A stretch of DNA of 60,181 bases from a virus (taxonomy: Duplodnaviria > Caudoviricetes), in the IMG/VR virus record IMGVR_UViG_3300042559_001222, positions 1 to 60,181 of that record; one strand, written 5' to 3'. The translations under genes were made by a program, and so were the position numbers. Of this stretch, positions 4,070 to 31,206 are shown one piece after another; within the stretch, counting starts at the first letter, position 1; every line of letters begins with the position of its first letter. A model generated the notes under the pieces. It had not been told where the DNA came from and did not search any database. It saw only the letters and a list, made by a program, of their open reading frames with translations.

Positions 4070-7000
4070 TTACTGTTGTGGAGGCATCGGTTGCATCGGC
4101 TGCCCTTGTAGTATTTGCTGACGGCGCTGCTCCAGCAACCCACTAATTGGATCATTAGGGAACAATGCCGGATACATCATTGGAACATTCTGTAAAGCAG
4201 AAGGCGGTTTCTTTGGCTGCGTAGTCGGCAACCGCAGTTGCTCAAGGCCCGTGGTCGGCGGCGCAGGAGGCAATGCCCGCAACATCGATGCCGCTGTTTC
4301 ACGTGAAACGACAGGCGCTTGTGCCATGCCGGGGATAGGTGTCTCTTGGTCTCCTACAGCAAGATTAGAGAGCTCCTGACGCGCTGTGCGGTCTACACGA
4401 GCTTGCAACATGGACCGCGGAACGCCGATCTTCTCCAACTCTGCTGCAAGGGCACGTCCCTGCTGTGGAGTACTGACCTTTGTCATCTTGCTGGCGAAGG
4501 CAGGATCTTCCAAGGCTTTGGTAAAGATGCGCTTGTAGATTTCGTTCTCTAAACCAGCGGAGAGACGTACCAGCACGGCCAATGCACCGGTGGATGGAGC
4601 GATACGGCCAACTGCTGCCTCGCGGGCCGTGGTTGTCAGGAATTGAATACCTGATCCCATCACACGCTTCAACGTCTCATCCAACGATTGGAAGACAGGA
4701 ATCTGCCCTGTTACATCCGCAAAAGCATTGACCCGGCGCTGCATGTCGGCCAGCATTTTTAAATCTTCCAGATGCTGTGTATCTTTGAACAGCACCTTCA
4801 ACGACTTCTCATTGTTGTCGATGAATGTCTTCAGCGCACCACCGCCCGTAGCACCTTCTGTGGCTAAGTCATAAATAGAACGGCGCAACGCGGCAAGTTG
4901 CTCGGGATTTTTACCTAACTCATCCACCAGAACCCGCATGGTCGCTGGGTCTTCTACTGCCTTGGCCAAGGTCTGACGGGGGTCAGCATCAGGACGGGTT
5001 ACGCGCTTGAGCATTTGGTCAAGCTCATCGTTGCCCGCTGCGACTCGACGAGCATCTATTTCACCCATGCGGCGAACATAGTCATCAGCAAGCGTTACCT
5101 CATCCTGCAATTTTGCTTGCAGTGTGTCAGGTAGTGCTTCCACAATGTTTTTGTTCTTATCTAAAACGGAACGAATCGTCTTCGGGTCTACCAAGCCGTC
5201 TTGGTTTACTACGCCTTTGGTACGCAGCCAATCCACTGTGCCTTTCAGCAGCAGATCGTCAAAGCCCGGGGTGCCCGCCAGAGATACCTGCAACTGACGC
5301 AGATTGCCCGCATTGGAAAATGCCTTTTGCAGCAACTGCTCGTTACCCAGCAAGAATGCATCGCCACGACCTGTCTTCTGAGCCATGAGCAGCGGTAGGT
5401 TCTGCTCGAACCCTGCACGATAATCAGCGAGGACATTCTTCATACCCTCGTACTCTGTCTTGATCTTTGGCACGTGGTCCAAGATCAGCTTCTCGATATC
5501 GTTGTACACCGCAGTGCCGGTATCCAAAGTACGCTGGGCATCAGTTAAGCGTGTACCGCCCTTATTCATAGCGGAGTTGTATCGTGCCAATGCGTCATTG
5601 CGGAACCGTGCCGCAGATGCTAAGTAGTCCAGTGCCTCTGGGACATTAATATTGATACCCGTGCTCTCAAGCGCGATTCGAGCAGCATCCTCATTAATCT
5701 GAGAAGGATTAATGGTAATGGACTTCCCCGGAATACCCGTAGGAATCGTTGCATTGCCTTTGGCATCCATCTTAACGGCTTCCGCCAAAGAGGCGCGGCG
5801 CTTGGTTCCTTTGCCTGATTTACCCTGCACCAAAGCCATAACCGAACTACGGATGGCCTCATCAAGGTCCGGAGGAAGTCCCAAACTTCTAATCTGTTTA
5901 TTGATTGCGTCATCGGTCAACTCTTTGACCATCTGATTCTCTAAACGAGCTCTAGCGGCTTGTTGGCCTTGAATAAAATTACGCAGGAAAGCAATAGGCT
6001 CCGGAATAGGATTGCGCAGTGATGGACGCTCTGGGGAATATTTCTCCACGAGCCCTGTCGCAGCCTTTTCCATGTCCCGTGCAGGGAACAAAGATTGCCC
6101 TTCACTTCGCGTAGGCATCGGCAAGCCCTCAGGGCTGGTTGCCTGACGAAGACCCATCAGACGCAACGTGTTGTTCCGCATGTTGTAGTCAAACTCCATG
6201 GCACCCATCAGTGCGCCACGCAGTTCGTTATTGATCATGTCCATGTTCTGAGGTCCGAGGCGCTCGGACACTGCCAAAATCTCCGCTTCCGTCATATCCT
6301 TTTTAGCACGGAGCAGATTCTCAAAAAAGGATTGACGCTCTGCCTGTGCGGCTTGGAACGCCTCAATAACCGATTGCCGCGCTTCAGGGGCAATGCTGTC
6401 CATTAGCCCACGAAGTTTCTGCTGGTTCTCGTTAATACGTGCTTTGGTCGCTTCCAGTTCCTTTGGCCCAAGCTGTTGCAGCAGCTGTGCCTTTCTTTCA
6501 AGCAGCGGGCCATACATGGTTGTTTCAGCCGCATCAAACATAAATCCTGCTTGTGAGAAGCGTGGGTCTTGCATGGCCAGTTCAAGCTGGCGAAGAGCTT
6601 GCTGTGCTTCGGGGCTCTCGGATATAGGGCCAAAGACCTGCGCTAATTTCTTCTCCGCATTTTTCATCAACAACTGCGGAACAATGCGGATACCCGGCAG
6701 TTGGTACGCCTTGCCTAACCCCTGTAGTACCTCATTTTCTACTTCGCCTAGACCAGAAGTAGCACTCTTTATTTTGTTCTTGATTGCTTTCCCTGCCATA
6801 ACGGAAGGGAGCATGCTCAGTGCTAAAGGCACACCAATAAATGCACCCATTGGCAAGAGATTTTCATACAACTGCTTATTGGGGTTATCGTCGCTGACAT
6901 TCTCTGTCACCGCTTGACGCAGACCTTCATATCCAGCACCAAATGCAACATCGACCGCCGCCGCTGCGCGTGGACTCTTCTGTACAAACTTGATGGCATC

Positions 7001-7450
7001 ATCCGCAATACCACGTAGCACACCCGTTTTCACAGTCTGTGCAGTAGTTACCATGGGGCGCAGACGAGCCGCCCATGCAAGAATTCCAGTGAAGGGCATT
7101 GTTCCGCCAACACCTTCTGCAATAGCACGGGCATAGCGTTCGGTGGAATCGCGGGGAGCAACCTGACCCTTGTTGAAGAATTTACCTAAGGTAAAAACCT
7201 CATCCTCTTTCATTCCCAAGGCCCTGCCGATCCCTAGTGTCGCAGCATCAGGTAAAGCAAACAGTGCAGAGTTGAATCCCCAAGAGGCATTACGCAACAA
7301 GCCCCCCAAACGATCTCCCTCAGGAACAGCTTGATCCAACTGCGGTTTCGCTCGAGCGGATTCCGTTGTTGGCGCACCTTCGACGCGGCCAACCACATTG
7401 CCTGTGGTTAGGTCAACGAGTTCACCACGTGCGTTGGTTAGCGTTGTCAT
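4070..7450 (-). CDS. Large internal virion / DNA ejection protein (putative)
   Basis: 1126 aa, helical, N-terminal hydrophobic Gly/Ala segments, last of the large post-tail genes. Confidence 0.6.
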   Translation of the reverse strand: MTTLTNARGELVDLTTGNVVGRVEGAPTTESARAKPQLDQAVPEGDRLGGLLRNASWGFNSALFALPDAATLGIGRALGMKEDEVFTLGKFFNKGQVAPRDSTERYARAIAEGVGGTMPFTGILAWAARLRPMVTTAQTVKTGVLRGIADDAIKFVQKSPRAAAAVDVAFGAGYEGLRQAVTENVSDDNPNKQLYENLLPMGAFIGVPLALSMLPSVMAGKAIKNKIKSATSGLGEVENEVLQGLGKAYQLPGIRIVPQLLMKNAEKKLAQVFGPISESPEAQQALRQLELAMQDPRFSQAGFMFDAAETTMYGPLLERKAQLLQQLGPKELEATKARINENQQKLRGLMDSIAPEARQSVIEAFQAAQAERQSFFENLLRAKKDMTEAEILAVSERLGPQNMDMINNELRGALMGAMEFDYNMRNNTLRLMGLRQATSPEGLPMPTRSEGQSLFPARDMEKAATGLVEKYSPERPSLRNPIPEPIAFLRNFIQGQQAARARLENQMVKELTDDAINKQIRSLGLPPDLDEAIRSSVMALVQGKSGKGTKRRASLAEAVKMDAKGNATIPTGIPGKSITINPSQINEDAARIALESTGININVPEALDYLASAARFRNDALARYNSAMNKGGTRLTDAQRTLDTGTAVYNDIEKLILDHVPKIKTEYEGMKNVLADYRAGFEQNLPLLMAQKTGRGDAFLLGNEQLLQKAFSNAGNLRQLQVSLAGTPGFDDLLLKGTVDWLRTKGVVNQDGLVDPKTIRSVLDKNKNIVEALPDTLQAKLQDEVTLADDYVRRMGEIDARRVAAGNDELDQMLKRVTRPDADPRQTLAKAVEDPATMRVLVDELGKNPEQLAALRRSIYDLATEGATGGGALKTFIDNNEKSLKVLFKDTQHLEDLKMLADMQRRVNAFADVTGQIPVFQSLDETLKRVMGSGIQFLTTTAREAAVGRIAPSTGALAVLVRLSAGLENEIYKRIFTKALEDPAFASKMTKVSTPQQGRALAAELEKIGVPRSMLQARVDRTARQELSNLAVGDQETPIPGMAQAPVVSRETAASMLRALPPAPPTTGLEQLRLPTTQPKKPPSALQNVPMMYPALFPNDPISGLLEQRRQQILQGQPMQPMPPQQ
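4295..4310. promoter_or_regulatory. parS-like site (ParB binding)
   Basis: TGTTTCACGTGAAACG, 15/16 match to the chromosomal parS palindrome TGTTTCACGTGAAACA. Confidence 0.7.
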
Positions 7451-10400
7451 TTTTGGATAAGCCCTTTGAGTTGAGTCGGGGTAAATGCATCAATGCGGCC
7501 ATTAGGCATTTTTATGTACACGGTGGCTCTTGGGTCCTGCAATGTACCAATTGTCGATCCTAAATAAGTAAACATACGTTTTTGACCTTCTGGATCAGCA
7601 GGAACAACAAACGGGTCAACTTGAGTACCCGTTTGTGGGGTTCGCATCACGTAGTCTTTATTCTCAAAGCCCAATTGAGTCAAAACATTTTGACGAGCGT
7701 TACGCAACTGCGCTTCCATAGTGGCAAACCGCTTGGCAGCGACTTCTTTGTTTGTAAAAAATTCTGTTGGTTTAGTGAGGTCGCCTAGTATGTCCCGCGC
7801 CCACTCTTGCTCTTGGACCGCGACACGGCCTTGATCATTAGCCGATGCAATACTCTTTTGCACCTGATTTAACCCGGCTTGGATTTGCTGTGCCGCAGCA
7901 GTCTGTTTCACATCAGGACGGACTAGGCCACCAGAGATAGGGACGATGACGTTGTTGATCTTGTCCACGAACCACGTGCCGGGGCTATAGAGTTCTGCAT
8001 ATTGGCCACGAAGATTATCAAACATCTTCAGGCTGTTATCTAACGCCCGCAGTGTGTTCCCCAGTTTGACGCGCTCACCCTTGTCTGTTTCTACTGTTGT
8101 AGGAGCATCGCCAAGATTATCAACAAATGGATTATCCGTCCCACGCAGTGTCCAACGGCTATCAACCGCACTTTGAACAGCAGGAGGCAGTTTTCCATTA
8201 GCGTCTGGTTTTATGTACGTTCCTAGGAAACTTCCTTTTCTATCTTTAACAATAGTCAGTCCCATTCCACCGTCTTCTTCTACAACACCTTGGTTTTTCA
8301 CCAGTTCTAACTGAATCGCAAGATCATTGGTAAGAATCGTGTTAGACCTCGTATTCCCACCTTTGATGTTTTCCAAAATCTGAGCATTATTAGCCCGAAT
8401 ACTTTCCAACTGCTCACGCGATCTTGCTTGCAGCACTGTATTAGCAAGACGGCCTTGGATTTCCAAATCTTTCAACTGAAGATCACGAGCAACCTTATCC
8501 TGCATATTAATACTATTAACTGCTTCCTGAAGCACCGCAGTCTTGATCTTGATGTCTCTGTCTTTAGCTTGCGCAACAATTGCTGCAAAGCCTTTCGGAA
8601 CTCCAGACAACGATTCACTCAATGCCATCGCCATCGTGGGTTTGTAGGTAGAGGCAAACTTGAAGCCAGCATCAGCCAATAGCAGAAATGCATTAGTACG
8701 TGCGTCGGCTTTGGTATCACCCAACAGTTCACGGAAAGTAGGCTCAAGGTCTTTATATTCTGCCCTGATCCGTTCGCCGCGGGTCTTGAATATATTATCT
8801 TTGACAAACTGCGTTGTGTCGTCCTTCTTGGGAATAATGCCTTCTTGCGTACGGCCCAATAAATTAGGATCGTACGTAAATTGATTTTTATCGCCAACCA
8901 ATCTTTGCAACAAAGATGGAGGCTGCACAAACTGTTCATTAGGATCGACTGCCGCAGTAGTTGTCTCTGTAGTTCCTTCTGTAGTGGAAGGCAGACCTTC
9001 CTTTGGCACTGGATTAGGGCGACCCCCAACAACCGTCAACTCCTGAGAAGATTCCGGCGCGCCCTGTGGATTAGGACGTGCCCCAACACTGTATCGGGGG
9101 TCAATGTAATTGCCTTTTGCGTCCCGTATTGGCGGGCCCTGAGGTGGTATTTGATCAATTAATGCATTGACCTGCGCCAATTCTTCCGCTGAACGGGGCG
9201 CAGCATTAGGGGAGGTCAAATTATTGTAAAGAGCAATATCCGCTGCCAGCACTCCAGTGCCCAATGCCGTAAGTTTAGGGTTCTTGCGGATAGCATTACC
9301 CGCCATGCCTAAGAGTGGATCTTGGCGAATTGCTTGGCTAAATGGGACGCGGCCCATGTTCAGCGTATTTGCTGCTTCCAGACGAGTGCCTCTACCCATC
9401 TCAGGGCCCCGCGGTCCTTGAACAATGTTCTCACGTCCTTGGATCACGGCTCGACGGCCATCTTCTGTCATCTGCTCAACACGCATCCCGGGACGGAGAA
9501 AGGGTGTCACAAGCTCGTCAAGATATTCAATGCCCCGTGTCATATAAGGAGTCAGTGCGCTACTGATCTTCCCAAACCCTTGAGAAGCCAATCGAGCACC
9601 TTCTGACACAAGCGTACCGCCAGCTGCGCGGAGCGGGGGCATACCATCAGGCGTAGGCGGAGCCTGTTCAGTTCCAAATGGCGCTGTTGACGATTCCTGT
9701 GCGTCCAGTGGTTTTGACGTATATCCCGTAAGGCTTGGTATGTCCTGCGTCAAACTTGGCTGCTGTGCCCCGGACGGCATAAGGATGTTAACGGACTGCG
9801 ACGGAGAAGTGGTACCTTGAAACAACGGAGAAGCACTAGGCGTTACACGCTCCTGTGCTTGATTTTCCTGAAGTCTTCCTAAAAAAGTCGTTCCACCGCT
9901 ATTCATCCCATCACTAAAAGGCATGGACGAACCAAACATGTCGCTATTGCCAAATGGATTGCTATTGCCAAATGGATTGCTATTGCCAAATCGGAGCGTT
10001 AGTTCTCCAGTGGCCGATACGTCACCGCCCTCTGCAAATGGTTGGGGCGGAGCCTGTTCAGCCCCGCCCTGCGGAAAAGGGGGCATACCCTCCATGCCCG
10101 GAGGCATCGCTGGACCTTGACCCATCATCGGAGGAGGAGCCATCTGAGCACCCTGCGGAAGTGCACCAATCCCGCCCTGCGGCATAGGCGGAGCCGTTTG
10201 CGCCGCAAGCTGCGGCTGCAACATGGCCAGAACTTCCGGCGGCGTTTCCATCGCTGCCTCTTCTCCAACCATTTGTGCCAGTTCAAGGTAACGTGCATCA
10301 ACGGAGCGCATGTCCCCACGAAGGTTATTCATCAGGATTTCAGGATTCTGCGGGCTACGAGCCATAGGCTGCATATCCTCTTCTTCCATCTCATCCTCAA

Positions 10401-10485
10401 ACCCAGCCATGATGCCAGTATTACGGGCAGATTTGGACATGGGTTTTGAAAACATTTCCCGCTTCAGGATTTCGTCTTTCATCAT
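7447..10485 (-). CDS. Internal virion / ejection protein (putative)
   Basis: 1012 aa, Pro/Met/Gln-rich N-terminus with FAEGG/RAAGG motifs, helical C-terminus. Confidence 0.6.
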   Translation of the reverse strand: MMKDEILKREMFSKPMSKSARNTGIMAGFEDEMEEEDMQPMARSPQNPEILMNNLRGDMRSVDARYLELAQMVGEEAAMETPPEVLAMLQPQLAAQTAPPMPQGGIGALPQGAQMAPPPMMGQGPAMPPGMEGMPPFPQGGAEQAPPQPFAEGGDVSATGELTLRFGNSNPFGNSNPFGNSDMFGSSMPFSDGMNSGGTTFLGRLQENQAQERVTPSASPLFQGTTSPSQSVNILMPSGAQQPSLTQDIPSLTGYTSKPLDAQESSTAPFGTEQAPPTPDGMPPLRAAGGTLVSEGARLASQGFGKISSALTPYMTRGIEYLDELVTPFLRPGMRVEQMTEDGRRAVIQGRENIVQGPRGPEMGRGTRLEAANTLNMGRVPFSQAIRQDPLLGMAGNAIRKNPKLTALGTGVLAADIALYNNLTSPNAAPRSAEELAQVNALIDQIPPQGPPIRDAKGNYIDPRYSVGARPNPQGAPESSQELTVVGGRPNPVPKEGLPSTTEGTTETTTAAVDPNEQFVQPPSLLQRLVGDKNQFTYDPNLLGRTQEGIIPKKDDTTQFVKDNIFKTRGERIRAEYKDLEPTFRELLGDTKADARTNAFLLLADAGFKFASTYKPTMAMALSESLSGVPKGFAAIVAQAKDRDIKIKTAVLQEAVNSINMQDKVARDLQLKDLEIQGRLANTVLQARSREQLESIRANNAQILENIKGGNTRSNTILTNDLAIQLELVKNQGVVEEDGGMGLTIVKDRKGSFLGTYIKPDANGKLPPAVQSAVDSRWTLRGTDNPFVDNLGDAPTTVETDKGERVKLGNTLRALDNSLKMFDNLRGQYAELYSPGTWFVDKINNVIVPISGGLVRPDVKQTAAAQQIQAGLNQVQKSIASANDQGRVAVQEQEWARDILGDLTKPTEFFTNKEVAAKRFATMEAQLRNARQNVLTQLGFENKDYVMRTPQTGTQVDPFVVPADPEGQKRMFTYLGSTIGTLQDPRATVYIKMPNGRIDAFTPTQLKGLIQK
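9943..9991. repeat. 18-bp tandem repeat (~2.7 copies) encoding FGNSNP
   Basis: gctattgccaaatggatt repeated. Confidence 0.9.
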
Positions 10486-10491
10486 GTTTCC

Positions 10492-11391
10492 TTAGAATAC
10501 ACCTAGTTCTTTTGCCGCTTTCCCAAGGGAGACCCCACCTACGAGCGTTCCTGCCACCTGCTGGAATGGGCTAGGCGTAGGCGTCATCTGTGAACTCACC
10601 GCCATCTGTGTGGAAGGTGCGCCTTTGTAGATATCAGAGATAAAGCCTAACTGCTGGTACGGCTGATATGCCGCCTGAAGTTCTGTGGCACGAAGTGCAT
10701 CCAGCTCACGCTGCTGCTGACCTTGCTGCTGCTGACCCAAGCCGTACTGGAACGTGACATCCTGCTGCCCCAATTGCTGCTGCAACCCGCCCAACGCACC
10801 AATACCCTGTGCCAATTGGCCACCAAGCTGGGCACCTTGCATTTGTCTTCCTTGCTGGGCCTCAAACGCTTGTTGTGCCTGTTGCATTGCGGCCTGATAC
10901 CCCTGATTTAGCATATTAGCGATAGTAGAGTTTTGCGTTTCAGACAAACCGCGCTGTAATTCAGCACGTTGAACGCCTTCTCTTGATCCCCCAAATGCCC
11001 CCGACTTGACAGCTTGAGCTTGAAGGTTCTGCCGTGCCAGTGCGCCTTGGCGATTAATATTGGCCATGGCCGCATCAATAACTTGCTGCTGATACGGGCT
11101 CATGAATTCGCTAACTTGCCCCGGCTGAAAGCGTTCCATCGCCCCAGACAATGTCTGCTGTGCTCCGGTGTATCCCTGTGATGCTTGGTCCATGTAAGGC
11201 TGGTATGCCCCAATCCCAGCCAAACCACGGTTGATGGCGTCTTGCTGTCCGGGAGACATCCCTGCTATTTGGTAGGCAGGAAGATCCGGCATAGGCAGTG
11301 CTTGTGCCGATTTCATGAGGCCCAGTTTAAGGGCCTCTATCTCAGGGGCTTCCCTGACTACTTGGGTTTGAGTTGAAGTATTGGATGCCAT
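10492..11391 (-). CDS. Gln-rich DNA ejection/pilot protein (putative)
   Basis: FMSPYQQQVID and GAFGGSREGV motifs, Gln-rich, C-terminal Gly-rich hydrophobic helix. Confidence 0.65.
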   Translation of the reverse strand: MASNTSTQTQVVREAPEIEALKLGLMKSAQALPMPDLPAYQIAGMSPGQQDAINRGLAGIGAYQPYMDQASQGYTGAQQTLSGAMERFQPGQVSEFMSPYQQQVIDAAMANINRQGALARQNLQAQAVKSGAFGGSREGVQRAELQRGLSETQNSTIANMLNQGYQAAMQQAQQAFEAQQGRQMQGAQLGGQLAQGIGALGGLQQQLGQQDVTFQYGLGQQQQGQQQRELDALRATELQAAYQPYQQLGFISDIYKGAPSTQMAVSSQMTPTPSPFQQVAGTLVGGVSLGKAAKELGVF

Positions 11392-11393
11392 GA

Positions 11394-21543: not shown

Positions 21544-21546
21544 GAT

Positions 21547-22392: not shown

Positions 22393-22406
22393 ACACCCTC
22401 GCCTAT

Positions 22407-22583
22407 TTACGCAGTGGTGAGTTGTCCCTCATCAAACCACCGCTCTTGTTCCACACCGTTTATATCAACCCAAGAAATCAAGTACTGAATATTTCCACTT
22501 TCTTCCATGCGCATAGATTTAACAGGGCCCTCTGGGACAATAGCAATTACTTTCGCAATGTCCCCTTTTCTAAACATAGCCAT
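22407..22583 (-). CDS. Small hypothetical protein (58 aa)
   Basis: Manual translation MAMFRKGDIAKV...QERWFDEGQLTTA; GGAG RBS; fills the gap; below the ORF-track cutoff. Confidence 0.75.
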   Translation of the reverse strand: MAMFRKGDIAKVIAIVPEGPVKSMRMEESGNIQYLISWVDINGVEQERWFDEGQLTTA

Positions 22584-22594
22584 CTAACGTCTCC

Positions 22595-23170
22595 TTATGT
22601 AGCGTCCGCGCTGAATGTGTAAGTGACATTAACCGTGTCGCCTGAAGCCACAATCTTGTCGCCACCTGTGAAGTCTCCTTCGGAAAACAGAACTCCCGAA
22701 GTACCTGAGGCCACATTAGTCAAGAACGCGCCAGCGATTGTCCCACCCGCCCCTGAAATAGTGAACACTGAAGGCGCAGCAGAGTTGTTAATAACCGAAG
22801 GATCCGCCAAAGTTGCCGAACCAAACGTCACTGCTTTGCGATTACCTGAATAATCTGTGTATTCGGTCCAACCCCCATGAGAGGCTAATGTATCCGTTGG
22901 ATCGTAAGTCGTCCCCGATCCCGGGCCTGTCACCAGACCCAAATACCAAGCGGCGCTGTAGGTTACGCCTTTAAAGTATTTAGTATTTAGGTCCTGAAGG
23001 CCTTCGTTAACAACCAAATTGTGGAACGTTTCTTCCCACCGTAGATTGCCGTCTTTGTCAAAACAAGTAACTGTGAACACGCCACCAAGACCGGCACCTG
23101 CATCCATTTGCGAGGACTTGCCTACGCCAATCTGGACAGAGTCGCTGAATGAAGATTTTGCAATAGGCAT
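22595..23170 (-). CDS. Tail structural protein
   Basis: C.DKDGNLRWEE..HNLVVNEGL, WYLGL, SGDTVNVTYTF motifs. Confidence 0.65.
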   Translation of the reverse strand: MPIAKSSFSDSVQIGVGKSSQMDAGAGLGGVFTVTCFDKDGNLRWEETFHNLVVNEGLQDLNTKYFKGVTYSAAWYLGLVTGPGSGTTYDPTDTLASHGGWTEYTDYSGNRKAVTFGSATLADPSVINNSAAPSVFTISGAGGTIAGAFLTNVASGTSGVLFSEGDFTGGDKIVASGDTVNVTYTFSADAT

Positions 23171-23195
23171 ATCAACCTCTAAGAAATTAATTACT

Positions 23196-23615
23196 TTAAA
23201 CTAAACGTATCAATGCAAACGTTGGATTGCTTGTAGGCAAATCCAATGTAAATGTCGCATTTACGGCTGTTTGGTTAGTACCAAAGTTCAACACAAACAT
23301 TGATTTGTTGCTCTTACTGCTGTTGTATATCAATGCCCCAATAGCAGTAAAAGATGCACCCGACCACGAAGGGTTGTCAAAGCTCACATAAGCAATTCCA
23401 CTCCCTGAGTTTACGGTGACGTTTGTCAGTATTTCGCCCCCAGCCGTATACCCCGACCCACTCGTTTCCGATGCCGTTGTATAGACCGTTGTGTCAGGGC
23501 CTAGTGTCGCAGTATCGGTGTACAACGCAATTTTTAGTACATCCGTTTCTAGATCATGCTGACCTAAAAAAAGTTGCTCCTTAAAGCTTGTTGTCCATGT
23601 CTGAGTAATTGCCAT
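23196..23615 (-). CDS. Tail structural protein
   Basis: SFKEQL..G.H, KIALYT, GYTAGG, GALIYN motifs common in phage tail genes. Confidence 0.65.
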   Translation of the reverse strand: MAITQTWTTSFKEQLFLGQHDLETDVLKIALYTDTATLGPDTTVYTTASETSGSGYTAGGEILTNVTVNSGSGIAYVSFDNPSWSGASFTAIGALIYNSSKSNKSMFVLNFGTNQTAVNATFTLDLPTSNPTFALIRLV

Positions 23616-24274
23616 TATTTCACCGGATATTTGACCTGACCATCACGATACATATCACCGCGCTGCTTGCCGTCACCAAGCTGTTTCGCAAGCATCAATG
23701 CTTCTTTGTACTTGTTGTCGTACAGTGCCATTATGTCAGGCTCACCCTTCATAAAGGTATACGCCTCAACAAGGCTACCGTATAAGAGCACCGAATCAAA
23801 ATTATCACCTAACCACGAGGTAGAGGCCGTCACAATAGACTCAGGGTAATAGTAATAGTGCAGCTCTACATCATAGATAGCATCTGGAGTAGGGCCTAAA
23901 ATAAAGCTCAATTCCGTCGTTATATTCCCCGAATCTACTGTAGGTCCAAAAATGCCATAGTATTTTGGGACCCCTGATGTATTTGGGTTTGGGTAGACCT
24001 CTCGGATAAAATTGACATCCTTATTTGTCAGATAAACATATTCACCATTCGCTTTTATGACGGCAAGCGAATAAACAGACAAGAAGTCTAAAGGCGCGGA
24101 TAGGTAGTGGTTCCCCGAAGTTGTCACGCCTTCTACGTTTTTCCTTAGGTTGGCAAACTGAATTGAATTGTAAATACGCTGCTCTGCTTGCTTCACAAAA
24201 GTGGCAAGCTCCGTCGCAGTAAAATCGTTCTGCGTGTAGTTTTCAATTGCTTCAGTTAGCTGTGCATAGTTCAT
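23615..24274 (-). CDS. Head-tail adaptor / tail tubular protein A-like
   Basis: MNYAQL...FVKQAEQRI, PKYY, GPTPD, LLYGSLVEAY.FMKG motifs. Confidence 0.7.
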   Translation of the reverse strand: MNYAQLTEAIENYTQNDFTATELATFVKQAEQRIYNSIQFANLRKNVEGVTTSGNHYLSAPLDFLSVYSLAVIKANGEYVYLTNKDVNFIREVYPNPNTSGVPKYYGIFGPTVDSGNITTELSFILGPTPDAIYDVELHYYYYPESIVTASTSWLGDNFDSVLLYGSLVEAYTFMKGEPDIMALYDNKYKEALMLAKQLGDGKQRGDMYRDGQVKYPVK

Positions 24275-24603
24275 GTGATCGATACCGTTACGTTAGCCAG
24301 CATTCCTCGTGCACTGAGCGTTCTTGCTACCTCAGCGGGTTGCATCCCAACACTAGCGATTGTTGAATCCCCGCCGTTCCACAACGAAATTAATACAGTT
24401 TGGACACCATCTGGACGCGGATCATAAACTGCAATTGGCTCATTTATCCCGCGTTTAGGCTCAAGTTGTGGGTGCTTGGGTTCGTAGCACTCCTGACACA
24501 CCTTAAATCCCGTCCACTCCTTCTTCAATTCCTTCAGGTAATACTGCTGGCCACACCTATCACAGATGGCTTGCGAAGCTTTTCCAACTGCATACCCAGC
24601 CAT
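24271..24603 (-). CDS. Hypothetical protein with two CxxC motifs
   Basis: CDRCG...CQEC, PKHPQL. Confidence 0.75.
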   Translation of the reverse strand: MAGYAVGKASQAICDRCGQQYYLKELKKEWTGFKVCQECYEPKHPQLEPKRGINEPIAVYDPRPDGVQTVLISLWNGGDSTIASVGMQPAEVARTLSARGMLANVTVSIT

Positions 24604-24604
24604 A

Positions 24605-25276
24605 TTAATACCCCAAATCAGGCGTCAAATACACGCTTGCAATATCTCTGTCCTCTTGTGCTGCCCGCTGAAACTCTTCCTCATACAACTGCTTTAGCAT
24701 GACTGTACGCTCTGGCGCTTTTTTGAGCGATAGATGATAGGCAAGTCCCGCGGCGAGACAAGGAAGAAATCGAAACACTACATCCGAAGTATTTGTATAC
24801 GACCCTACGTCCTCTATGCGGCGCACAGCGTAGTAACGGAAGATGTACGTTTCTGTGTTGTCCGGAGCCGGATAGACAAATAACTTAGGGGAAGTAGTAC
24901 GCTGCACATAGTACTGAGCAGGACGCGCTTGTGTGTTTTTATCGGGGAGATGCAGGTATTCGTTTTGGCTGATACGATCAATCGTAATATCCTGCTGCGT
25001 CTGTCCCGAACCCGTACGAATAACCGCAGAAAGCACATTGACCGTATCTGATGGAAGCGTGTATTCAGCTTGACCATAGACCATGGTGGTCTGACGCTGT
25101 TCAATCGTCCAGAGATTAAGGCCACGATTAGCCCATTCAAGAAACAACAAGTTCAAAGACCGTCTTGCGGTCTTCATGTCATAGCCATCGCGGTTTTCAA
25201 GACCGCAACGCTCATATGCCTCTTCAATCAGGTCATCAAACTCTAAATTGAAGGTTGTTGTTCCAGAGGTTGCCAT
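24605..25276 (-). CDS. Head-to-tail connector protein
   Basis: MATSGTTTF, IEEAYERCG, ARRSLNLL..EWANRGLNLWT, RFLPCL.AGLAY. Confidence 0.7.
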   Translation of the reverse strand: MATSGTTTFNLEFDDLIEEAYERCGLENRDGYDMKTARRSLNLLFLEWANRGLNLWTIEQRQTTMVYGQAEYTLPSDTVNVLSAVIRTGSGQTQQDITIDRISQNEYLHLPDKNTQARPAQYYVQRTTSPKLFVYPAPDNTETYIFRYYAVRRIEDVGSYTNTSDVVFRFLPCLAAGLAYHLSLKKAPERTVMLKQLYEEEFQRAAQEDRDIASVYLTPDLGY

Positions 25277-25612
25277 TTAGCACCCTTTTCCCTTTTTAGC
25301 CATGCCACCGGAAGCGTAACGTGTACCCTTTGAGCCCCCAAATTTATTTTGGTTCAATCCTGCTTTACCGCTGTGCTTGACGTTTGGTGTCTTGACTTCT
25401 TTGATCATCTTGCCGATATCGGGATCACGGCGGCTTGGCGTAACTGCATCGCCCACACGATTGACCGTTCCACCTTTTTGAAACTCCATACCCTTACTGG
25501 TACGGCTAAACTTCTTTGCCACCTTAGTTGGAATGCCAACTTTTTTCGCAAAAGCCGGGTTATGCGCTGCCGCATCCATCAATTTCTTTTGTTTGGCGCT
25601 TTTAGCTGGCAT
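25277..25612 (-). CDS. Small basic protein with FQKGG/YASGG motifs
   Basis: MPAKSAKQKKLM.AAAHNPAFAKKVGIP. Confidence 0.75.
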   Translation of the reverse strand: MPAKSAKQKKLMDAAAHNPAFAKKVGIPTKVAKKFSRTSKGMEFQKGGTVNRVGDAVTPSRRDPDIGKMIKEVKTPNVKHSGKAGLNQNKFGGSKGTRYASGGMAKKGKGC

Positions 25613-25844
25613 TTTTTGTCTCCATCAAGCGATCAATTTTTGCATCCAAACGATCTAATCGATCCAGAACACGATTAATATCGGCATGAACCTCTGCTTT
25701 TGTCACATATTCCTTGGCGATTTCCTCCCGCGTACGATTCAACAGGATTTGAATACGCTGAAGTTCTGCCGATTTTTCGTGCATTATCCATCCGCATACC
25801 GCAACTAGTATGGATAAAAGCGCGTTCCACAGTACCATTTCCAT
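25602..25844 (-). CDS. Small membrane-anchored coiled-coil protein
   Basis: N-terminal TM, TREEIAKEYVTK...RLDAKIDRL. Confidence 0.7.
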   Translation of the reverse strand: MEMVLWNALLSILVAVCGWIMHEKSAELQRIQILLNRTREEIAKEYVTKAEVHADINRVLDRLDRLDAKIDRLMETKNAS

Positions 25845-26132
25845 TTAGCATTTCCACCGTTTTCTGGCCTGTCGCAACCGACTATCTGGATCTGCCGCTG
25901 CTTTCGGGAATTTCTTCATCTGCCCCTCACTGCGGGCGCAATATGACTTACGGCGTTCAGCACGTTTCCCTGAAGGATTGTCCTCAGTGACCGCAGTTTG
26001 TAGCTTACTGCCGGGGTTCGCCCGGCGATACGCCGCTACGCCCTGCTTGGTCATACCTGCCCCGGTCTTTGTCGAGCGAAAATTACCCGACTTGACCGAG
26101 GTAGCTATCGGCTTTTCCTTACGGGAGGCCAT
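25845..26132 (-). CDS. Small basic conserved phage protein
   Basis: GMTKQGVAAYRRANPGSKL, RRKSYCARS, RQARKRWKC. Confidence 0.8.
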   Translation of the reverse strand: MASRKEKPIATSVKSGNFRSTKTGAGMTKQGVAAYRRANPGSKLQTAVTEDNPSGKRAERRKSYCARSEGQMKKFPKAAADPDSRLRQARKRWKC

Positions 26133-26135
26133 GAC

Positions 26136-26420
26136 TTAGCAAATGCGAGTCTTCTTGCCACGTGCTGCGCCATTGCCACGGGAGTCAACCATGCCGCCCT
26201 TGGAATAGCCCATTGCCATTTTCTTACGTGGGCTGACGTTGCCAACTGCACCACCTTTGGCGTAACCCATCATGCCGCCACCCATCTTCGACATAGGCAT
26301 GGAATCCATGCTGTACATATCGTCGCCAGCCATGCCTTTTTTGGTGGACTTGGCCATTTTCATGCCTTTATCCATCGACATGCCTGATTTCTTACGCTTT
26401 TTGTTCATCTTCATCATCAT
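26136..26420 (-). CDS. Met/Lys/Gly-rich small basic protein with YAKGG/YSKGG motifs
   Basis: 94 aa low-complexity; ends RGNGAARGKKTRIC. Confidence 0.75.
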   Translation of the reverse strand: MMMKMNKKRKKSGMSMDKGMKMAKSTKKGMAGDDMYSMDSMPMSKMGGGMMGYAKGGAVGNVSPRKKMAMGYSKGGMVDSRGNGAARGKKTRIC

Positions 26421-26431
26421 GATTCGGCTCC

Positions 26432-26713
26432 TTATGCCCAGAAGAATGTGGCAGAAATAACATCCGTTAAATCTGCATAAGCCCCGCTTTTAAACAAAAT
26501 ACCATCCTCTGGCAGTGACATATAAATGGCACTGCTATTGGCAGGAACGTCGATTTTGTACAAGACGGTACCACCACTGCCACCGTCTTTAATTACAACT
26601 TCGCCCACACCTGCATCCGGGGACACATATATGGCCTTGACACGAGTTCGGCCAGTAAAAATGTTCCCGTCAGCATCTAGATAGGTACTTTGTATATCGC
26701 TCATGTATCCCAT
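26432..26713 (-). CDS. Small beta-rich virion protein (putative)
   Basis: 93 aa, RVKAIY...LPEDGILF. Confidence 0.7.
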   Translation of the reverse strand: MGYMSDIQSTYLDADGNIFTGRTRVKAIYVSPDAGVGEVVIKDGGSGGTVLYKIDVPANSSAIYMSLPEDGILFKSGAYADLTDVISATFFWA

Positions 26714-26726
26714 GGCGACCTCCTAA

Positions 26727-27164
26727 TTAGGTAGCAGAGAACAGAATCGATGCAGCCAATGTGCAGAATGCGTAAGCAAACCAGCTTGTGCCGTCACTGA
26801 TCAGTTCTACACGATCACCCGCAACAGAGGAACTTGCCACAAAGGTAATAGTGTCATCGCCCGTGCCTGTATCACCCGCAGCGCCCTCAGAATTGTATTG
26901 CTGGCCTTTAATAATGTTCGCGCCACCATTTGTGACTACTGTGTAGGCAGTGCCAACTGGAGCGGCTTTTACGATAAACGTAAAGCGAAGACCAGCTGCT
27001 GGCAATGGAAGCGTTGTAGCAAACTCAGTTGCCGAGTTCAGGAAGATTGTCTTTCCGCTATCTGCGGCAGTCAAAGTGCTTGCAGCAGTGGTAGTAGATA
27101 CAGCGATAGGGCCCAGAAAGCCATTTTCAGAGATTACTGGACCGGAAAAGGTAGTATTTGCCAT
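26727..27164 (-). CDS. Capsid-associated / head fibre protein (putative)
   Basis: MANTTFSGPV.SENGF start, TLP.PAAGL.FTF; first gene after the major capsid. Confidence 0.6.
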   Translation of the reverse strand: MANTTFSGPVISENGFLGPIAVSTTTAASTLTAADSGKTIFLNSATEFATTLPLPAAGLRFTFIVKAAPVGTAYTVVTNGGANIIKGQQYNSEGAAGDTGTGDDTITFVASSSVAGDRVELISDGTSWFAYAFCTLAASILFSAT

Positions 27165-27174
27165 GAAGATATCC

Positions 27175-27248
27175 TCACATGCGAGTTAAAGCATATCTGT
27201 CTGCATGTCGTCAGCCGGGTCTGTCAGATATGCCGGAAAAGTCCCGGA
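27175..27248 (-). ncRNA. Structured element downstream of the gpT-like capsid gene (possible Mu-gpT-DE RNA motif)
   Basis: 9-bp stem gcatatctg/cagatatgc (27191-27199/27225-27233) plus flanking small hairpins; position fits that motif, no covariance search run. Confidence 0.45.
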
Positions 27249-27278
27249 ATACGTTGAATATACACTATTGACAGCAAA

Positions 27279-27306
27279 AGAAAAGGGGCCCGAAGGCCCC
27301 TTTTCT
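27279..27306 (-). terminator. Rho-independent terminator after major capsid gene
   Basis: agaaaaggggcc-cgaa-ggccccttttct hairpin with T-tracts on both strands. Confidence 0.85.
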
Positions 27307-27317
27307 CGTTTCCCCCA

Positions 27318-28241
27318 TTAAGCTGGGGTGTAGCCTTCCGAACCCCAAATTGCACGGGGATCTGACCAGCCGAACGAATAACGCTCACGGGCCTTGTAAC
27401 GAACGTTACCAGTATCAAAATCGCCTTCGAAGGCAGTCTTGATTGCGGAACGCTGGAACATCTTCATGCCGTTAGGTGCATCGGTCATCAGGAACCATGC
27501 ATCTGGATCGGTCAGGAAGTGGTTGACGAAGTAACCTTCGGGAACCATGCCCATCGACTTGATGGCGTTGATGTCGTTGTCTGCTGTTCCGGTACGCAGG
27601 GTCGATTTCATCAGGCGCTCTGCGGTAAATTGCAGTTCCTTAGGAATGATCATGCGGCGAACGGTCAGAGCGACCTTCAAACCACGTTCGTCGGTGAAAC
27701 CGGCGACATCGATGATGCCCTGTTCCAGCGAAGTTTCGTTCAGGTCAGCTGCCGTTGTAGGCACGTTGCTAAACGATGGGCCAAGAGCGGTTGGGTGTGC
27801 GCTGTTGCACAGCGACACACCGTCACCACCGTTGTAAGGGCCAGTTGTGTTGAACGCGTTGTTCAACACAGAAGCTGCCTTAACTTGCTTGGTGTAGGAC
27901 ATCGAACGAGCCAGAGCCTTGGTATAACGGCCAGACAGACGGTCATAGAGGTTGTCCTCGATGGCCTCTTCGGTCAGGGCGAATGCCAGAGCGACGGTTT
28001 CGTGGGTGTAACGAGCAGTGAACGATTCCTGTGCGGAGTCGTAGTTCACGCCAGCGCCTTCGTTCTTCGTTGGGGCTTCGTCGAAGCCGGTCAGCATGAC
28101 CTCTTCTTCAAATGCACGGTCCGAAGATTCAACGGAGAAGATTGCAGTGTGCTCGTTTTCGTAGCGGTTGTATTCCATGCCGAACAGAGCGTTCAGGCCG
28201 GGCTCCAGCTCTTTGACGAGTTGCGAACGAGAAATAGCCAT
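27318..28241 (-). CDS. Major capsid protein (Mu gpT-like HK97 fold)
   Basis: MAISRSQLVKELEPGLNALFG, ARYTHETVALAF, YKARERYSFGWSDPR; followed by a strong terminator. Confidence 0.9.
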   Translation of the reverse strand: MAISRSQLVKELEPGLNALFGMEYNRYENEHTAIFSVESSDRAFEEEVMLTGFDEAPTKNEGAGVNYDSAQESFTARYTHETVALAFALTEEAIEDNLYDRLSGRYTKALARSMSYTKQVKAASVLNNAFNTTGPYNGGDGVSLCNSAHPTALGPSFSNVPTTAADLNETSLEQGIIDVAGFTDERGLKVALTVRRMIIPKELQFTAERLMKSTLRTGTADNDINAIKSMGMVPEGYFVNHFLTDPDAWFLMTDAPNGMKMFQRSAIKTAFEGDFDTGNVRYKARERYSFGWSDPRAIWGSEGYTPA

Positions 28242-28254
28242 GACTTAGCTCCTA

Positions 28255-28842
28255 TTAGACCGGTGCTGTATTAGCAACGCCAGCGCTGCCATACAGGTGT
28301 GCGTTAATCTTCACAACAACATCGACGTAGTTCTGGCCGAGTGTGTTGTTCGGGGCGGTGTAGTTACCCACAATCTTCAGCACAAGACCGGCGACATTGT
28401 CAATGGTGGACGAATCCAACTCAGTGCCAGATACGCCTGTGATGTTGCTGCCCGCGGTATACGCAATATTGGCATTTTTACCAATATCCGCCTGAACGAC
28501 ATCTTCATCCGCTTGGATCAGGAACAACTGGTTGGGATCATCGATCACATCAGCCGTAATAGCACCAGTGGTGATGTTGACCGAACCGGGGTAGTAGTTA
28601 CTCCAAGTGGGCTTGCCCGATGTTGGGTCAACGTAGAAGCAACCATTGAACACACCAACTGCTACGGTATGCAGGGTCGAATCGTATTTGACAATGTAAC
28701 CACCAGAAAGAGTGACGAGGTCACCCTGATAGATAGCGCCGGATTGGTTGTCCGCAATGTTGTAGCCATACTGCTTCTGTGCACCAGTAGCAGAGAGGTT
28801 ACCCAGAGGGCGCAGACCAAAGGCTTTATCAACGTTTGCCAT
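28255..28842 (-). CDS. Capsid decoration / cement protein (putative)
   Basis: MANVDKAFGLRP, IYQGDLV, V.DDP...F.IQAD; immediately upstream of the capsid gene. Confidence 0.65.
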   Translation of the reverse strand: MANVDKAFGLRPLGNLSATGAQKQYGYNIADNQSGAIYQGDLVTLSGGYIVKYDSTLHTVAVGVFNGCFYVDPTSGKPTWSNYYPGSVNITTGAITADVIDDPNQLFLIQADEDVVQADIGKNANIAYTAGSNITGVSGTELDSSTIDNVAGLVLKIVGNYTAPNNTLGQNYVDVVVKINAHLYGSAGVANTAPV

Positions 28843-28869
28843 TTGTATCTCCTAAAGGGTTATGTAGTC

Positions 28870-29340
28870 TTAACGACTACCGAAAGTAGTGCGAGAACTC
28901 CGTTCGGGGTTCTGGATACGCATTGTCGAGTGTGCGTTTTCACGCATCAACTCGTTGTCTACTGCACTGATCTGCTCTCGTGCCTTCCGGTTGTAGTGAG
29001 CATTACGTTCGGCAAGAGTCTCATTAGGAATACGCGCCAAAAGCAAGCCACCGACAGAAATCACGCCCGCATGTTTACCATCTTCGATGGTAGGTAGCGT
29101 ATCGCGATATTCTTCGGGCAGTTCTTCATTGCGGACCAGTTCATAGCCCTCACGAAGTCTGCCAAAAACGTGCTGTTTGTCGTCGAACCCATTGATCTCT
29201 GCACGAATCCAGCGATGCTGGAAACCGGCAGGTGCTGGAGGGGCATCCAAACGCGAAGGAGGTGCCCAAGGCTTGCGACGCGCTTCTTTCTCACGGGTTG
29301 CGCGAGGGGCGCGGTCGATAGTAAGTTTATCTTGGCTCAT
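28870..29340 (-). CDS. Conserved head-module protein
   Basis: WAPPSRLDAPPAP.GF.HRWIR, LREGYELV, GGLLLARIP. Confidence 0.75.
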   Translation of the reverse strand: MSQDKLTIDRAPRATREKEARRKPWAPPSRLDAPPAPAGFQHRWIRAEINGFDDKQHVFGRLREGYELVRNEELPEEYRDTLPTIEDGKHAGVISVGGLLLARIPNETLAERNAHYNRKAREQISAVDNELMRENAHSTMRIQNPERSSRTTFGSR

Positions 29341-29343
29341 TTA

Positions 29344-30282
29344 TTACTCCTTTACGTATTTGGCATATTCCTCGAGCGGAACACCCAATTTCTTTGCAAT
29401 AGCAACTTGACTCGGTGAAAGCTTCACCGTCCTGCGTGCACTATTTACCCCGGAACTACGGGAAGCAGGTGCAACGGCTGGCACGTTCGACCGTTGTCTG
29501 TTGTTGGTTGAAGCAGCCCGGAACTTGTTTGGAAACTCATTCCGAAGCCTGTTATCTAATTCAGTATAGTACTCGTCCGAATCAGGGTCAATGCCCTCTT
29601 CTTCAATCAAAGTCTGATGGATACCCCATGCGGCGTACGTCATCGTCCTATCCTGACCAAACCACTCATTCCTAGCCGCCCAATCCTCTGCGCGAGGGCT
29701 AGGTGCTGGCTGGCGAGGGGCCTGTTGCTGGTATGCGGGCTGCTGTGGCTGAACCCGCTGCTGTACAGGCGCTGCTTGCGGCTCTGGGCGTGAATCTTCC
29801 CATTGCTGCAACTGACGCTGCTCCATTGACAGCTGCATAAGGCGCTCTTGGGCCTCTGTTTCAGTATCAATATCGCCTTCTTCACGCGCCCTGCGAATAA
29901 TTGCCTTTAATTGCATTTGCTGCGTTTCTACTCTGGACCGTGCCTCGTATACCCGGCTTTGATCCGTACTAACCAGCTGTTGTTCAAGGTGATTTGCCTT
30001 GGCTTGGACATTACGAGCGTAATCCAAGGCCGCTTGCTCACGGCGCTCCGCCTCACGCATCTTAGCTGTCAGTTTAGCAATGCGCTTCTGCACATTTTCG
30101 CTGACCTGATCCAACTCATGCTTCTCTGGCTCAGATTTTTGAGCCACTGCGGGTTGTGTTGCTTCTAGTGTGGAAGAACCGCCCCTATCCTCCGATTCCT
30201 GCTCTGGAAGTTCAATACTAGTCTCTGTTTCGCCTTCGCCTAGCTCAAATTCAAGCTGGCTGTCTGGTGTGATGTTAGCCAT
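29344..30282 (-). CDS. Capsid scaffolding protein (putative)
   Basis: Acidic N-terminus, coiled coil, WA.RN.WFG, C-terminal VKLSPSQVAIAKKLGVPLEEYAKY. Confidence 0.7.
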   Translation of the reverse strand: MANITPDSQLEFELGEGETETSIELPEQESEDRGGSSTLEATQPAVAQKSEPEKHELDQVSENVQKRIAKLTAKMREAERREQAALDYARNVQAKANHLEQQLVSTDQSRVYEARSRVETQQMQLKAIIRRAREEGDIDTETEAQERLMQLSMEQRQLQQWEDSRPEPQAAPVQQRVQPQQPAYQQQAPRQPAPSPRAEDWAARNEWFGQDRTMTYAAWGIHQTLIEEEGIDPDSDEYYTELDNRLRNEFPNKFRAASTNNRQRSNVPAVAPASRSSGVNSARRTVKLSPSQVAIAKKLGVPLEEYAKYVKE

Positions 30283-30291
30283 GGTGAGTCC

Positions 30292-30744
30292 TTACATGTG
30301 CAGAATGTCTTCTGGGTTGTCGATTCGGGCCAATACCTCGTCATCATTGATGATTCGGATTTCCCCGCCGTCTACACCAATACGCGCACCCGCATATCGG
30401 CCAAAAACAATCCAATCACCCTGCTTGCACCATGCTCCGTTGGGGAATTTGCCTTCATCTTTGTAAGCCAATTCGCCAACGGCCAGAACATAGCCGCAGA
30501 CAGTGGTGATTTGTTGTTTTTCGATGGTTGAATCAGCAAGGACAATGCCTCCCTTGCTCTTTTTTGCGCCTCGATAGGGCAAAATCACAATTCGCCAGCC
30601 CGTAGGCTTCGGAATACGGTCCAGAACAGACTCGTTGATATCTTCGACAGCCAAACTGCCGTCATCCTTGTATGCGTCATCCAAAGTCGGAACCTTCTCC
30701 GCTTCTTCTTTCGCCCATTTTTCTTCCAGTGCTGACATTGTCAT
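30292..30744 (-). CDS. groES: Co-chaperonin GroES (Cpn10) homolog
   Basis: PTGWRIVI, SKGGIVL, VLAVG, GDWIVFGRYAG, RIINDDEVLA. Confidence 0.9.
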   Translation of the reverse strand: MTMSALEEKWAKEEAEKVPTLDDAYKDDGSLAVEDINESVLDRIPKPTGWRIVILPYRGAKKSKGGIVLADSTIEKQQITTVCGYVLAVGELAYKDEGKFPNGAWCKQGDWIVFGRYAGARIGVDGGEIRIINDDEVLARIDNPEDILHM

Positions 30745-30757
30745 AGTTTTAAGTTCC

Positions 30758-30943
30758 TCAGGAGTTTGAGTTCTTCTTCAGGAGATCATTTATTGCCATC
30801 TCCACAAACTTATAGCCCTCAATCCGTCCCATCAGGAACTTGTAATGCTCCATGTCCTTCACGCCGCCACCCACGATAACGTCTTCCGACTGTTTCCGTA
30901 GATTTCTGACTGAAATTAGCACTTGTTCAGTGAATTCAAGCAT
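30758..30943 (-). CDS. Small hypothetical protein upstream of GroES
   Basis: 61 aa, GGVKDMEHYKFLMGRIEG. Confidence 0.75.
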   Translation of the reverse strand: MLEFTEQVLISVRNLRKQSEDVIVGGGVKDMEHYKFLMGRIEGYKFVEMAINDLLKKNSNS

Positions 30944-31062
30944 GGATTATCCCAAGTACGCAGATAGTACGGGCCCTATCTGAAGGCTACACGCATATTA
31001 TGCATGTCTTTTTGCACTAAAACACCAATTTAATATAAGTGTACTTACATTAAAACTGCATT

Positions 31063-31206
31063 TTAGGTAATTTTTACCTTTTTGAAGGCATCTTTCCGAT
31101 AAACAAAGGTTGGTTTGTTCACCTGAATTGTTTCACGTGGAACATTCTTGGTCCGACTAGGACCTGTTTCACGCTTTGTCATCGATTTATTGGGTCTGGT
31201 TGCCAC
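31063..31206 (-). CDS. Small basic protein (47 aa) that contains the parS site
   Basis: GTG start with AGGAGG RBS, MATRPNKSMTKRETGPSRTKNVPRETIQ...KKVKIT; not in ORF track. Confidence 0.6.
   Translation of the reverse strand: MATRPNKSMTKRETGPSRTKNVPRETIQVNKPTFVYRKDAFKKVKIT
31129..31144. promoter_or_regulatory. parS site (ParB binding)
   Basis: TGTTTCACGTGGAACA (reverse complement TGTTCCACGTGAAACA), a canonical chromosomal parS variant; extra half-site TGTTTCACG at 31165. Confidence 0.75.

Follow-up and report, generated by a model that had tools for sequence, protein, structure and literature searches.

Chromosomal-type parS sites maintained in a family of aquatic podophages: candidate loading sites for host ParB

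The window, as we call the whole stretch of DNA analysed here, is a complete IMG/VR virus record of 60,181 nucleotides from a freshwater phage of lytic appearance (IMGVR_UViG_3300042559_001222; Caudoviricetes), and it carries two copies of parS, the chromosomal site bound by the bacterial partition protein ParB. Both lie within open reading frames (ORFs), one in the gene for a protein of 1126 amino acids (aa) and the other in a 47-aa ORF beside the portal gene (Table 1). A first-pass annotation had picked out both sequences from the letters alone, and we find them where it placed them and in the coding context that it gave (peptides VSRET and VPRET); it had gone on to propose that the phage hijacks the partition system of its host. 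Each site is the exact 14-bp core GTTYCACGTGRAAC and differs by a single mismatch from the palindromic 16-mer. The consensus takes the forms TGTTNCACGTGAAACA, TGTTCCACGTGGAACA and NGTTNCACGTGAAACN in Table 1 of PMC7022226, which shows variation between species at positions 5 and 12 and at the two outer bases. Judged by their sequence, a 16-bp palindrome around a 14-bp core, both are genuine parS of the chromosomal, host type. The half-site that had been noted at 31165 is present too. Half-sites are not enriched in the window: with both strands counted, there are 8 copies of GTTTCAC and 10 of GTTCCAC, where length alone predicts about 7. In an alignment of relatives a string resembling the half-site, CGTGAAAC, stands at the matching place only in L056 and L058.

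Site 1 falls towards the C-terminus of the 1126-aa protein, in a portion rich in Pro and Ala, where the peptide VVSRET lies at about residue 1047 of 1126. This protein has no Pfam or PHROG match, and it shows no tblastn similarity to the record of phage DSL-LC04 at E<=1e-5; the name 'DNA transfer protein' was considered for it and dropped, because only the gene order of DSL-LC04 supports that name. The 47-aa ORF that contains site 2 overlaps the portal stop codon, is preceded by a GGAGG ribosome-binding site and is conserved in relatives, with a hypervariable N-terminal half and a conserved C-terminal end (..TYVYRKDAFKKVKI). Between this ORF and the next, directly before the ATG of the latter, lies a conserved CATAAT box followed by a hairpin-forming stretch (..CAGATAGGGC..CTGTCTGC..). 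An alignment shows this element to be kept in relatives despite diverged neighbouring sequence, and it resembles a late promoter or a structured 5' leader.

The majority of the window's genes are on the minus strand. In addition to the genes of Table 1, it encodes a major head protein, a tape-measure-like protein and a replication block comprising a family A DNA polymerase, a UvrD-type helicase, an AEP primase and an SNF2 helicase; about 40 of its 77 ORFs have no family assignment. The record ends in a 77-base terminal repeat and therefore closes into a circle of 60,104 bp, which the two sites divide into arcs of 26.8 and 33.3 kb, in agreement with the lengths first calculated. We infer that this repeat arose as an overlap in assembly: its length is exactly 77 bases, the terminal repeats of G016, G017, G025, G026 and G031 measure exactly 127 bases, and both lengths resemble assembler k-mer overlaps, not biological repeats. 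Among named phages, those closest to it are the freshwater-lake phage DSL-LC04 (about 65% identity in both large terminase (TerL) and portal) and the Pelagibacter phages HTVC027P and HTVC023P. When 24 kb of the window were compared with GenBank phages by megablast, there was no match, and relatives were found through proteins. A tRNA scan of the window found none, and so gave no clue to the host.

Table 1. Coordinates of the parS sites and of the genes and elements around them in the window
Feature	Position	Strand	Family match	Remarks
parS site 1	4295..4310			TGTTTCACGTGAAACG; the outermost base is the sole departure from consensus
parS site 2	31129..31144			TGTTTCACGTGGAACA; minus-strand reading TGTTCCACGTGAAACA is the exact consensus TGTTNCACGTGAAACA
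Half-site TGTTTCACG	31165..31173			21 bases from site 2; weak, no function claimed
Paralog of the gene at 2981..4060	989..2053	-		Neighbouring paralogs, ~62-63% identical over full length
Paralog of the gene at 989..2053	2981..4060	-	No Pfam match	
1126-aa late-region protein, family unassigned	4070..7450	-		Holds site 1
GroES-like co-chaperonin	30292..30744	-	phrog_3188	
CATAAT box and hairpin	30944..31062	-		Between the 47-aa ORF and ORF 30758..30943
47-aa basic protein	31063..31206	-		Holds site 2, peptide VPRET
Portal	31187..33562	-	phrog_1216, E 1.8e-41	Directly upstream of site 2
1448-aa polyvalent protein	33572..37918	-	ART-PolyVal (ADP-ribosyltransferase) domain	
Large terminase	37968..39428	-	phrog_38, E 1e-113	
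Small terminase	43105..43770	-	phrog_51, E 1.3e-12	Terminase_2 at 25.5 bits, slightly below the 26.1-bit cut-off; separated from site 2 by 12 kb and from site 1 by 39 kb

In the window alone, the two exact cores compare with 0.02 expected, and none of 100 shuffles contained two or more, which bears out the earlier claim that two such sites are improbable by chance. When up to three mismatches are allowed, the window by itself is a weak and marginal test: 0.22 sites are expected, and 2 of 100 shuffles gave two. A search with the 1126-aa protein yielded 33 IMG/VR loci, whose whole records were scanned; a site with at most two mismatches occurred in nine of these records, including all six complete genomes, and a reversed control pattern in none of the 33. 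The seven complete genomes, 430,149 bases in all, hold nine exact cores, compared with an expectation of 0.0063 from base composition and of about 0.0045 from a third-order Markov model. The enrichment that the first-pass annotation had suggested looking for among related phages is thus found. In a census of every possible 16-bp palindrome (65,536 in all) at up to one mismatch, parS ranks first, with eight sites in six of the seven complete genomes; the variant TGTTCCACGTGGAACA comes second, and every other palindrome occurs in at most three genomes, those being one close trio. A perfect site is also present in G123, the eighth complete genome.

The places that parS occupies are not homologous, being spread over three genes and a single intergenic location. 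In the window, G001, G004 and G006 a site lies at the C-terminus of the 1126-aa protein, and in the window, G001, G017 and G025 one lies in the small post-portal ORF. The polyvalent gene, which has no parS in the window, holds one at about residue 130 of the protein in G016, G026 and G031, another at residue 372 in G031, and, with one core mismatch, one at residue 144 in G022; the N-terminal parts of the polyvalent homologs diverge strongly among relatives. G017 has an intergenic site upstream of TerL, and in relatives parS frequently lies just upstream or downstream of the large terminase gene. A portal search gave 80 loci; 16 of them contain 17 sites at up to two mismatches, and 11 of these sites lie 46-94 bases beyond the end of the portal gene.

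Several features imply that it is the DNA, rather than the encoded peptide, that is constrained. Among ten non-redundant sequences (of 14, four near-identical ones having been dropped), the majority base has a frequency of 0.97 within the 16-mer of site 2, compared to 0.64 in one flank and 0.65 in the other. The N-terminal half of the 47-aa ORF can hardly be aligned among relatives, and the 16-mer is nearly invariant. Within the site, variation is confined to the first base, to position 5 (T/C) and to position 12 (A/G), which are the known degenerate positions; the amino-acid changes that are tolerated, S/P and E/G, coincide with degenerate positions 5 and 12 of parS. All coding copies translate as V-[S/P]-R-[E/G]-T, and one of the two other frames has a TGA stop. 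Site 1 is present at homologous codons in the three closest relatives (L003, L006 and L008), as a perfect 16-mer in two of them, and all four site-bearing sequences use the same codons there for V, R, E and T. Across the 1126-aa gene, 144 of 678 conserved-residue columns have identical codons; by residue the counts are 3/28 for V, 12/53 for R, 16/46 for E and 4/38 for T, with a product of about 9e-4. This synonymous-site comparison, also proposed at the outset, is therefore positive, although with four sequences it is crude. More distant homologs have P-R-E-T or related peptides at the place of site 1, written in other codons and with no palindrome, so that the peptide does not force the DNA sequence. 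Retention of the peptide with loss of the palindrome, which the first-pass annotation had named as a result that would count against its idea, is seen only there, at site 1 of distant relatives, and the complete genomes of some of these carry parS elsewhere.

Because parS ranks first in the census, because nine cores stand against about 0.006 expected, and because of the island of conservation and the frozen synonymous positions, we conclude from these sequence comparisons that a chance origin is rejected and that the sites are maintained by selection. The view that they are chance matches, or neutral remnants of captured host DNA, could appeal to the marginal result for the window at up to three mismatches, where 2 of 100 shuffles reached two sites, but it is contradicted by the exact-core counts, the census, the conservation island and the frozen codons, and we give it practically no credence. 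Captured host DNA was rejected as a source because conservation is limited to 16 bases and these lie inside phage genes. A 16-bp binding site has thus been kept inside three genes by way of a single open frame while moving between genes over evolution, a clean natural example of selection on DNA overriding choice at the protein level.

The movement can be followed on a tree of 88 portal rows. Only one clade, of 17 rows (SH-aLRT 94), has the post-portal site, which is present in 14 of its 16 informative rows. The sublineage that lacks it consists of L063, a 22%-complete contig with no exact core, and G022, which has its near-site in the polyvalent gene; the clade of G016, G026 and G031 has the polyvalent-gene site only. 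On the sequences compared here, such turnover is what one would expect if the thing that matters is for each genome to have at least one site.

What might bind these sites? As the first-pass annotation had stated, no ParA, ParB or integrase is recognisable: six-frame Pfam searches of the window gave no match to ParB_N, AAA_31 or Phage_integrase, nor to Resolvase or the ResT-TelK telomere resolvase. Across eight records (the window, six complete relatives and G001), six-frame searches for CbiA, ParB_N and HTH_ParB were negative in all eight. With no phage partition proteins detected, host ParB becomes the only plausible binder.

A wider survey points in the same direction. At least 119 IMG/VR stretches contain the perfect 16-mer, compared to two for the reversed palindrome, and ParB_N was found in none of the first 50 of the 119 listed records, 11 of which are at least 90% complete. 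Among the 119 listed loci, 38 have a blastx match to window proteins (E<=1e-8): 25 are clear family members, with at least 40% identity to packaging, structural or replication proteins, eight are distant (27-38%), and five match only through a generic helicase or are doubtful. Another 27 resemble phage phi29 (Phi29_MCP and tail-knob domains; tblastn), and the other 54 belong to neither group. The phi29-like loci (27 among L136-L250, for example L140, L147 and L154) are small genomes with one to four perfect parS, some of them inside a 693-aa ORF whose N-terminal motifs resemble a protein-primed polymerase and which has no Pfam match; they amount to an unplanned positive control for the parS scan. 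None of the 27 matched any of the 77 window ORFs by blastx at E<=1e-8. Common descent of the window phage with the phi29-like phages was thus not borne out, and the common factor is most simply a host protein.

The same survey contains loci in which the sites adjoin the terminase gene. Seven marine loci have a perfect site 40-150 bases upstream of TerL; since they were chosen by exact match, the invariance of the site in them is not independent evidence. In L155, L194, L206 and L238, whose TerL is 27-29% identical to that of the window, two to five perfect parS are packed into about 1 kb directly upstream of TerL and form a centromere-like cluster; in the window's clade, by contrast, the sites stand singly.

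These data also bear on a different kind of binder, encoded by the phage itself: the small terminase acting at a pac site, or an unrecognised helix-turn-helix (HTH) protein, with the identity to parS being coincidence or mimicry. The nearness of many relatives' sites to terL or terS would suit this, and the window's unassigned ORFs, about 40 in number, could hide a cryptic binder. However, phi29-like contigs with no blastx match to the window contain the same 16-mer, as do loci whose TerL is only 27-89% identical. The window's sites are 12 and 39 kb from terS, whereas a pac site would lie in or beside terS and co-vary with it. The variation seen is the degeneracy that ParB is known to tolerate, at positions 5 and 12 and the outer bases, and neither ParB_N nor HTH_ParB was detected in any of the eight records. 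Moreover, phi29-like phages package protein-primed DNA without a pac site, and a 16-bp palindrome fits a dimeric HTH protein better than a ring-shaped small terminase. We regard a phage-encoded binder as very unlikely.

On the bacterial side, 121 genomes were sampled from the class to which G133 belongs; 107 of them contain the exact core, which is thus the usual chromosomal motif there, and 3 a control pattern. This tally includes an unpublished genome, G168. G133 is a metagenome-assembled genome (MAG) labelled as Kordiimonadaceae, and its class is taken as Alphaproteobacteria. Genomes of this class typically have two exact cores about 2 kb apart, and the parS count of the 60-kb phage genome equals that of a typical whole chromosome among them. 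Three small genomes of the class have many more (G248, 29 in 0.8 Mb; G140, 13 in 1.4 Mb; G213, 13 in 1.9 Mb). The exact core is also present in four of four aquatic MAGs. Enterobacteriaceae, on the other hand, are described as having no par genes (PMC7022226). Cultured relatives of the window phage infect Pelagibacter. Portal homologs found in bacterial contigs (12 loci) were rejected as host evidence: they come from MAGs of many unrelated phyla, and for that reason we read them as mis-binned phage contigs.

Taken together, the comparisons make it likely that the sites are loading sites for host ParB. Host ParB would load at the phage parS as a clamp dependent on cytidine triphosphate and spread over the adjoining phage DNA, so that an unintegrated phage genome would acquire a partition complex of the host type. 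Host ParA and ParB could then position the phage DNA and pass it on with the chromosome origins during a delayed or suspended infection, that is, in a carrier or pseudolysogenic state. Such segregation would be the non-sporulating counterpart of the entry of phi29 into spores through Spo0J and parS. We consider it an even question whether host ParB, loading at these sites, makes the phage DNA a replicon segregated by the host; granted that ParB binds, segregation as the purpose of the sites comes close to, and perhaps just up to, an even chance. It is preferred because of the analogy with phi29 and because parS can stabilise an unstable plasmid. The original proposal of a hijack of host ParB is partly supported: its components, namely host-type parS, selection on the DNA and no detectable ParA, ParB or integrase, stand up to the comparisons. 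The uses that it offered, segregation, recruitment of SMC and titration of ParB, are candidates, and the sequence data do not tell segregation apart from titration or from a local effect on late genes or packaging.

Several observations weigh against segregation by host ParB. One or two sites per genome cannot separate segregation from ParB titration or SMC loading. No repressor, dormancy switch or plasmid-type replication control was recognised in the window; a carrier state would need such control, so the lack of recognised genes counts against it, but with about 40 ORFs unannotated this is weak either way. A divergent phage-encoded binder could escape the Pfam models. The trait is also patchy. 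Among six GenBank relatives only HTVC027P has a site, with one outer-base mismatch; DSL-LC04, HTVC023P, 023Pt_psg01, Caulobacter phage RW and CRP-901 have none at up to two mismatches, and the same is true of G096 (89% complete), G108 and G119. The exact core is found in only 22 of 50 portal-related records, most of them fragments. Finally, the sole host prediction is a computational one, to Pseudomonadota, for a relative.

The small number of chromosomal sites suggests another use for host ParB. The parS of a replicating phage would outnumber the roughly two sites of the chromosome, drain ParB from the origin and derail host segregation; in alphaproteobacteria, this sequestration would also upset the placement of the division ring through ParB and MipZ and so halt division of the infected cell. 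A single phage genome already equals the cell's site count, given that chromosomes of the sampled class typically have two cores, the varied positions of the sites suit an effect that does not depend on position, and a coupling of ParB, MipZ and FtsZ is described for alphaproteobacteria (PMC7022226). Against this, dosage would predict more sites, and one or two sites with turnover resemble a requirement for presence; in addition, the sole studied precedent, phi29, is described in the sources cited below as using its sites for segregation, not titration. We consider sequestration rather unlikely.

The location of the sites raises a further alternative, in which the ParB complex, or SMC recruited by it, would organise or silence the late and packaging region; in other variants it would time the late genes by copy number or serve packaging as a host factor. 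Sites do cluster near the portal, terL and the polyvalent gene, whereas the replication module yielded none. Site 2 is about 100 bp upstream of the conserved CATAAT and hairpin element that precedes the capsid-assembly genes, and distant relatives have three to five perfect sites just upstream of TerL. Nevertheless, site 1 is 39 kb away from terS, at the distant end of the late block, and from clade to clade the sites keep no constant position with respect to promoters and genes. The marine cases upstream of TerL are an ascertained sample, having come from an exact-match scan, and ParB is described as a transcriptional regulator in only a few species (PMC7022226). A local effect of this kind seems to us distinctly unlikely.

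Returning to segregation by the host, its broadest form would be that virulent aquatic podophages, a large lineage of freshwater kin of the HTVC023P-type pelagiphages that is abundant worldwide, keep a bare host centromere; that both daughters of slow-growing, non-sporulating cells inherit the unintegrated genomes through host ParABS; and that an orphan chromosomal parS is a recurrent viral device. We put this forward tentatively and think it on balance doubtful. If true, it would mean vertical transmission with neither a phage protein nor an integrase. Should host ParB load on these genomes, very abundant aquatic phages that are supposed to be strictly lytic would have a built-in means to persist in dividing hosts or interfere with them, which would bear on the old question of how pseudolysogeny and carrier states work in oligotrophic bacteria. 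The phi29/Spo0J strategy, so far that of phages of spore-formers, would then reach non-sporulating Pseudomonadota as well. The hypothesis is directly testable with HTVC027P, which has one site, and its Pelagibacter host, both of them in culture.

Phages that maintain themselves through partition provide a comparison of another sort. P1, with parABS, and N15, with a sop-type system, encode their own ParA and ParB and use element-specific centromeres. They are alike in that a phage genome is maintained or positioned through a ParB-type centromere; in the window, by contrast, no ParA or ParB domain was detected, nor was a cassette of a ParA ATPase and ParB found beside the centromere, and the site is the universal chromosomal one. 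Another parallel, which gives the segregation reading its mechanistic footing, comes from plasmids. A single parS together with the chromosomal par operon is reported to stabilise unstable plasmids (PMC7022226), so that one parS would suffice for host Par proteins to position or stabilise a foreign replicon; those plasmids are laboratory constructs, whereas the arrangement in the window's family is natural, viral and maintained by evolution. Virulent phages are also described as keeping sites for other host proteins, namely CtrA boxes in phages of Alphaproteobacteria, associated with 'lytic deferment', and Spo0A boxes in phi29 (PMC9437464). There too, phage DNA retains sites for a DNA-binding protein that is conserved among hosts, and these couple infection to the host cell cycle, but they are promoter-associated sites for transcription factors, whereas parS in the window's family is mostly intragenic and independent of position.

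The nearest known case is phi29 itself. Meijer et al. in 2005, as papers citing them relate, reportedly described parS sites in phi29, the part of host Spo0J and entrapment of the phage genome in spores. Pseudomonadota are not known to sporulate, and since the known and predicted hosts of the window's family are Pseudomonadota, spore entrapment can hardly be the purpose here; the sporulating host of the phi29 case probably has no counterpart in this family. The phi29 genome is described as having five parS sites for host Spo0J (PMC2731898), and Spo0J as being involved in transport of that genome into the prespore (PMC2731898; PMC9437464). The likeness is considerable: a virulent phage without partition genes of its own carries several host-type parS, and host ParB moves its genome. 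The window likewise has host-type parS with no detectable phage ParA or ParB. It differs in belonging to a group of podophages of about 60 kb near HTVC023P, HTVC027P and DSL-LC04, and in that genomes of this family have one or two sites rather than five, mostly within coding sequence and shifting between clades. The first-pass annotation had overlooked this precedent, and its idea is accordingly less novel than it implied. Our search of open main texts found no paper on host-type parS in phages of Gram-negative or aquatic hosts, and the terms 'parS' and 'ParB' are absent from the text of the HTVC023P-type genome paper. Overall, the principle is already known from phi29, as far as the papers cited here describe it; what is new is its setting in a large lineage of aquatic podophages with presumably non-sporulating hosts, with sites that lie inside genes and turn over between them.

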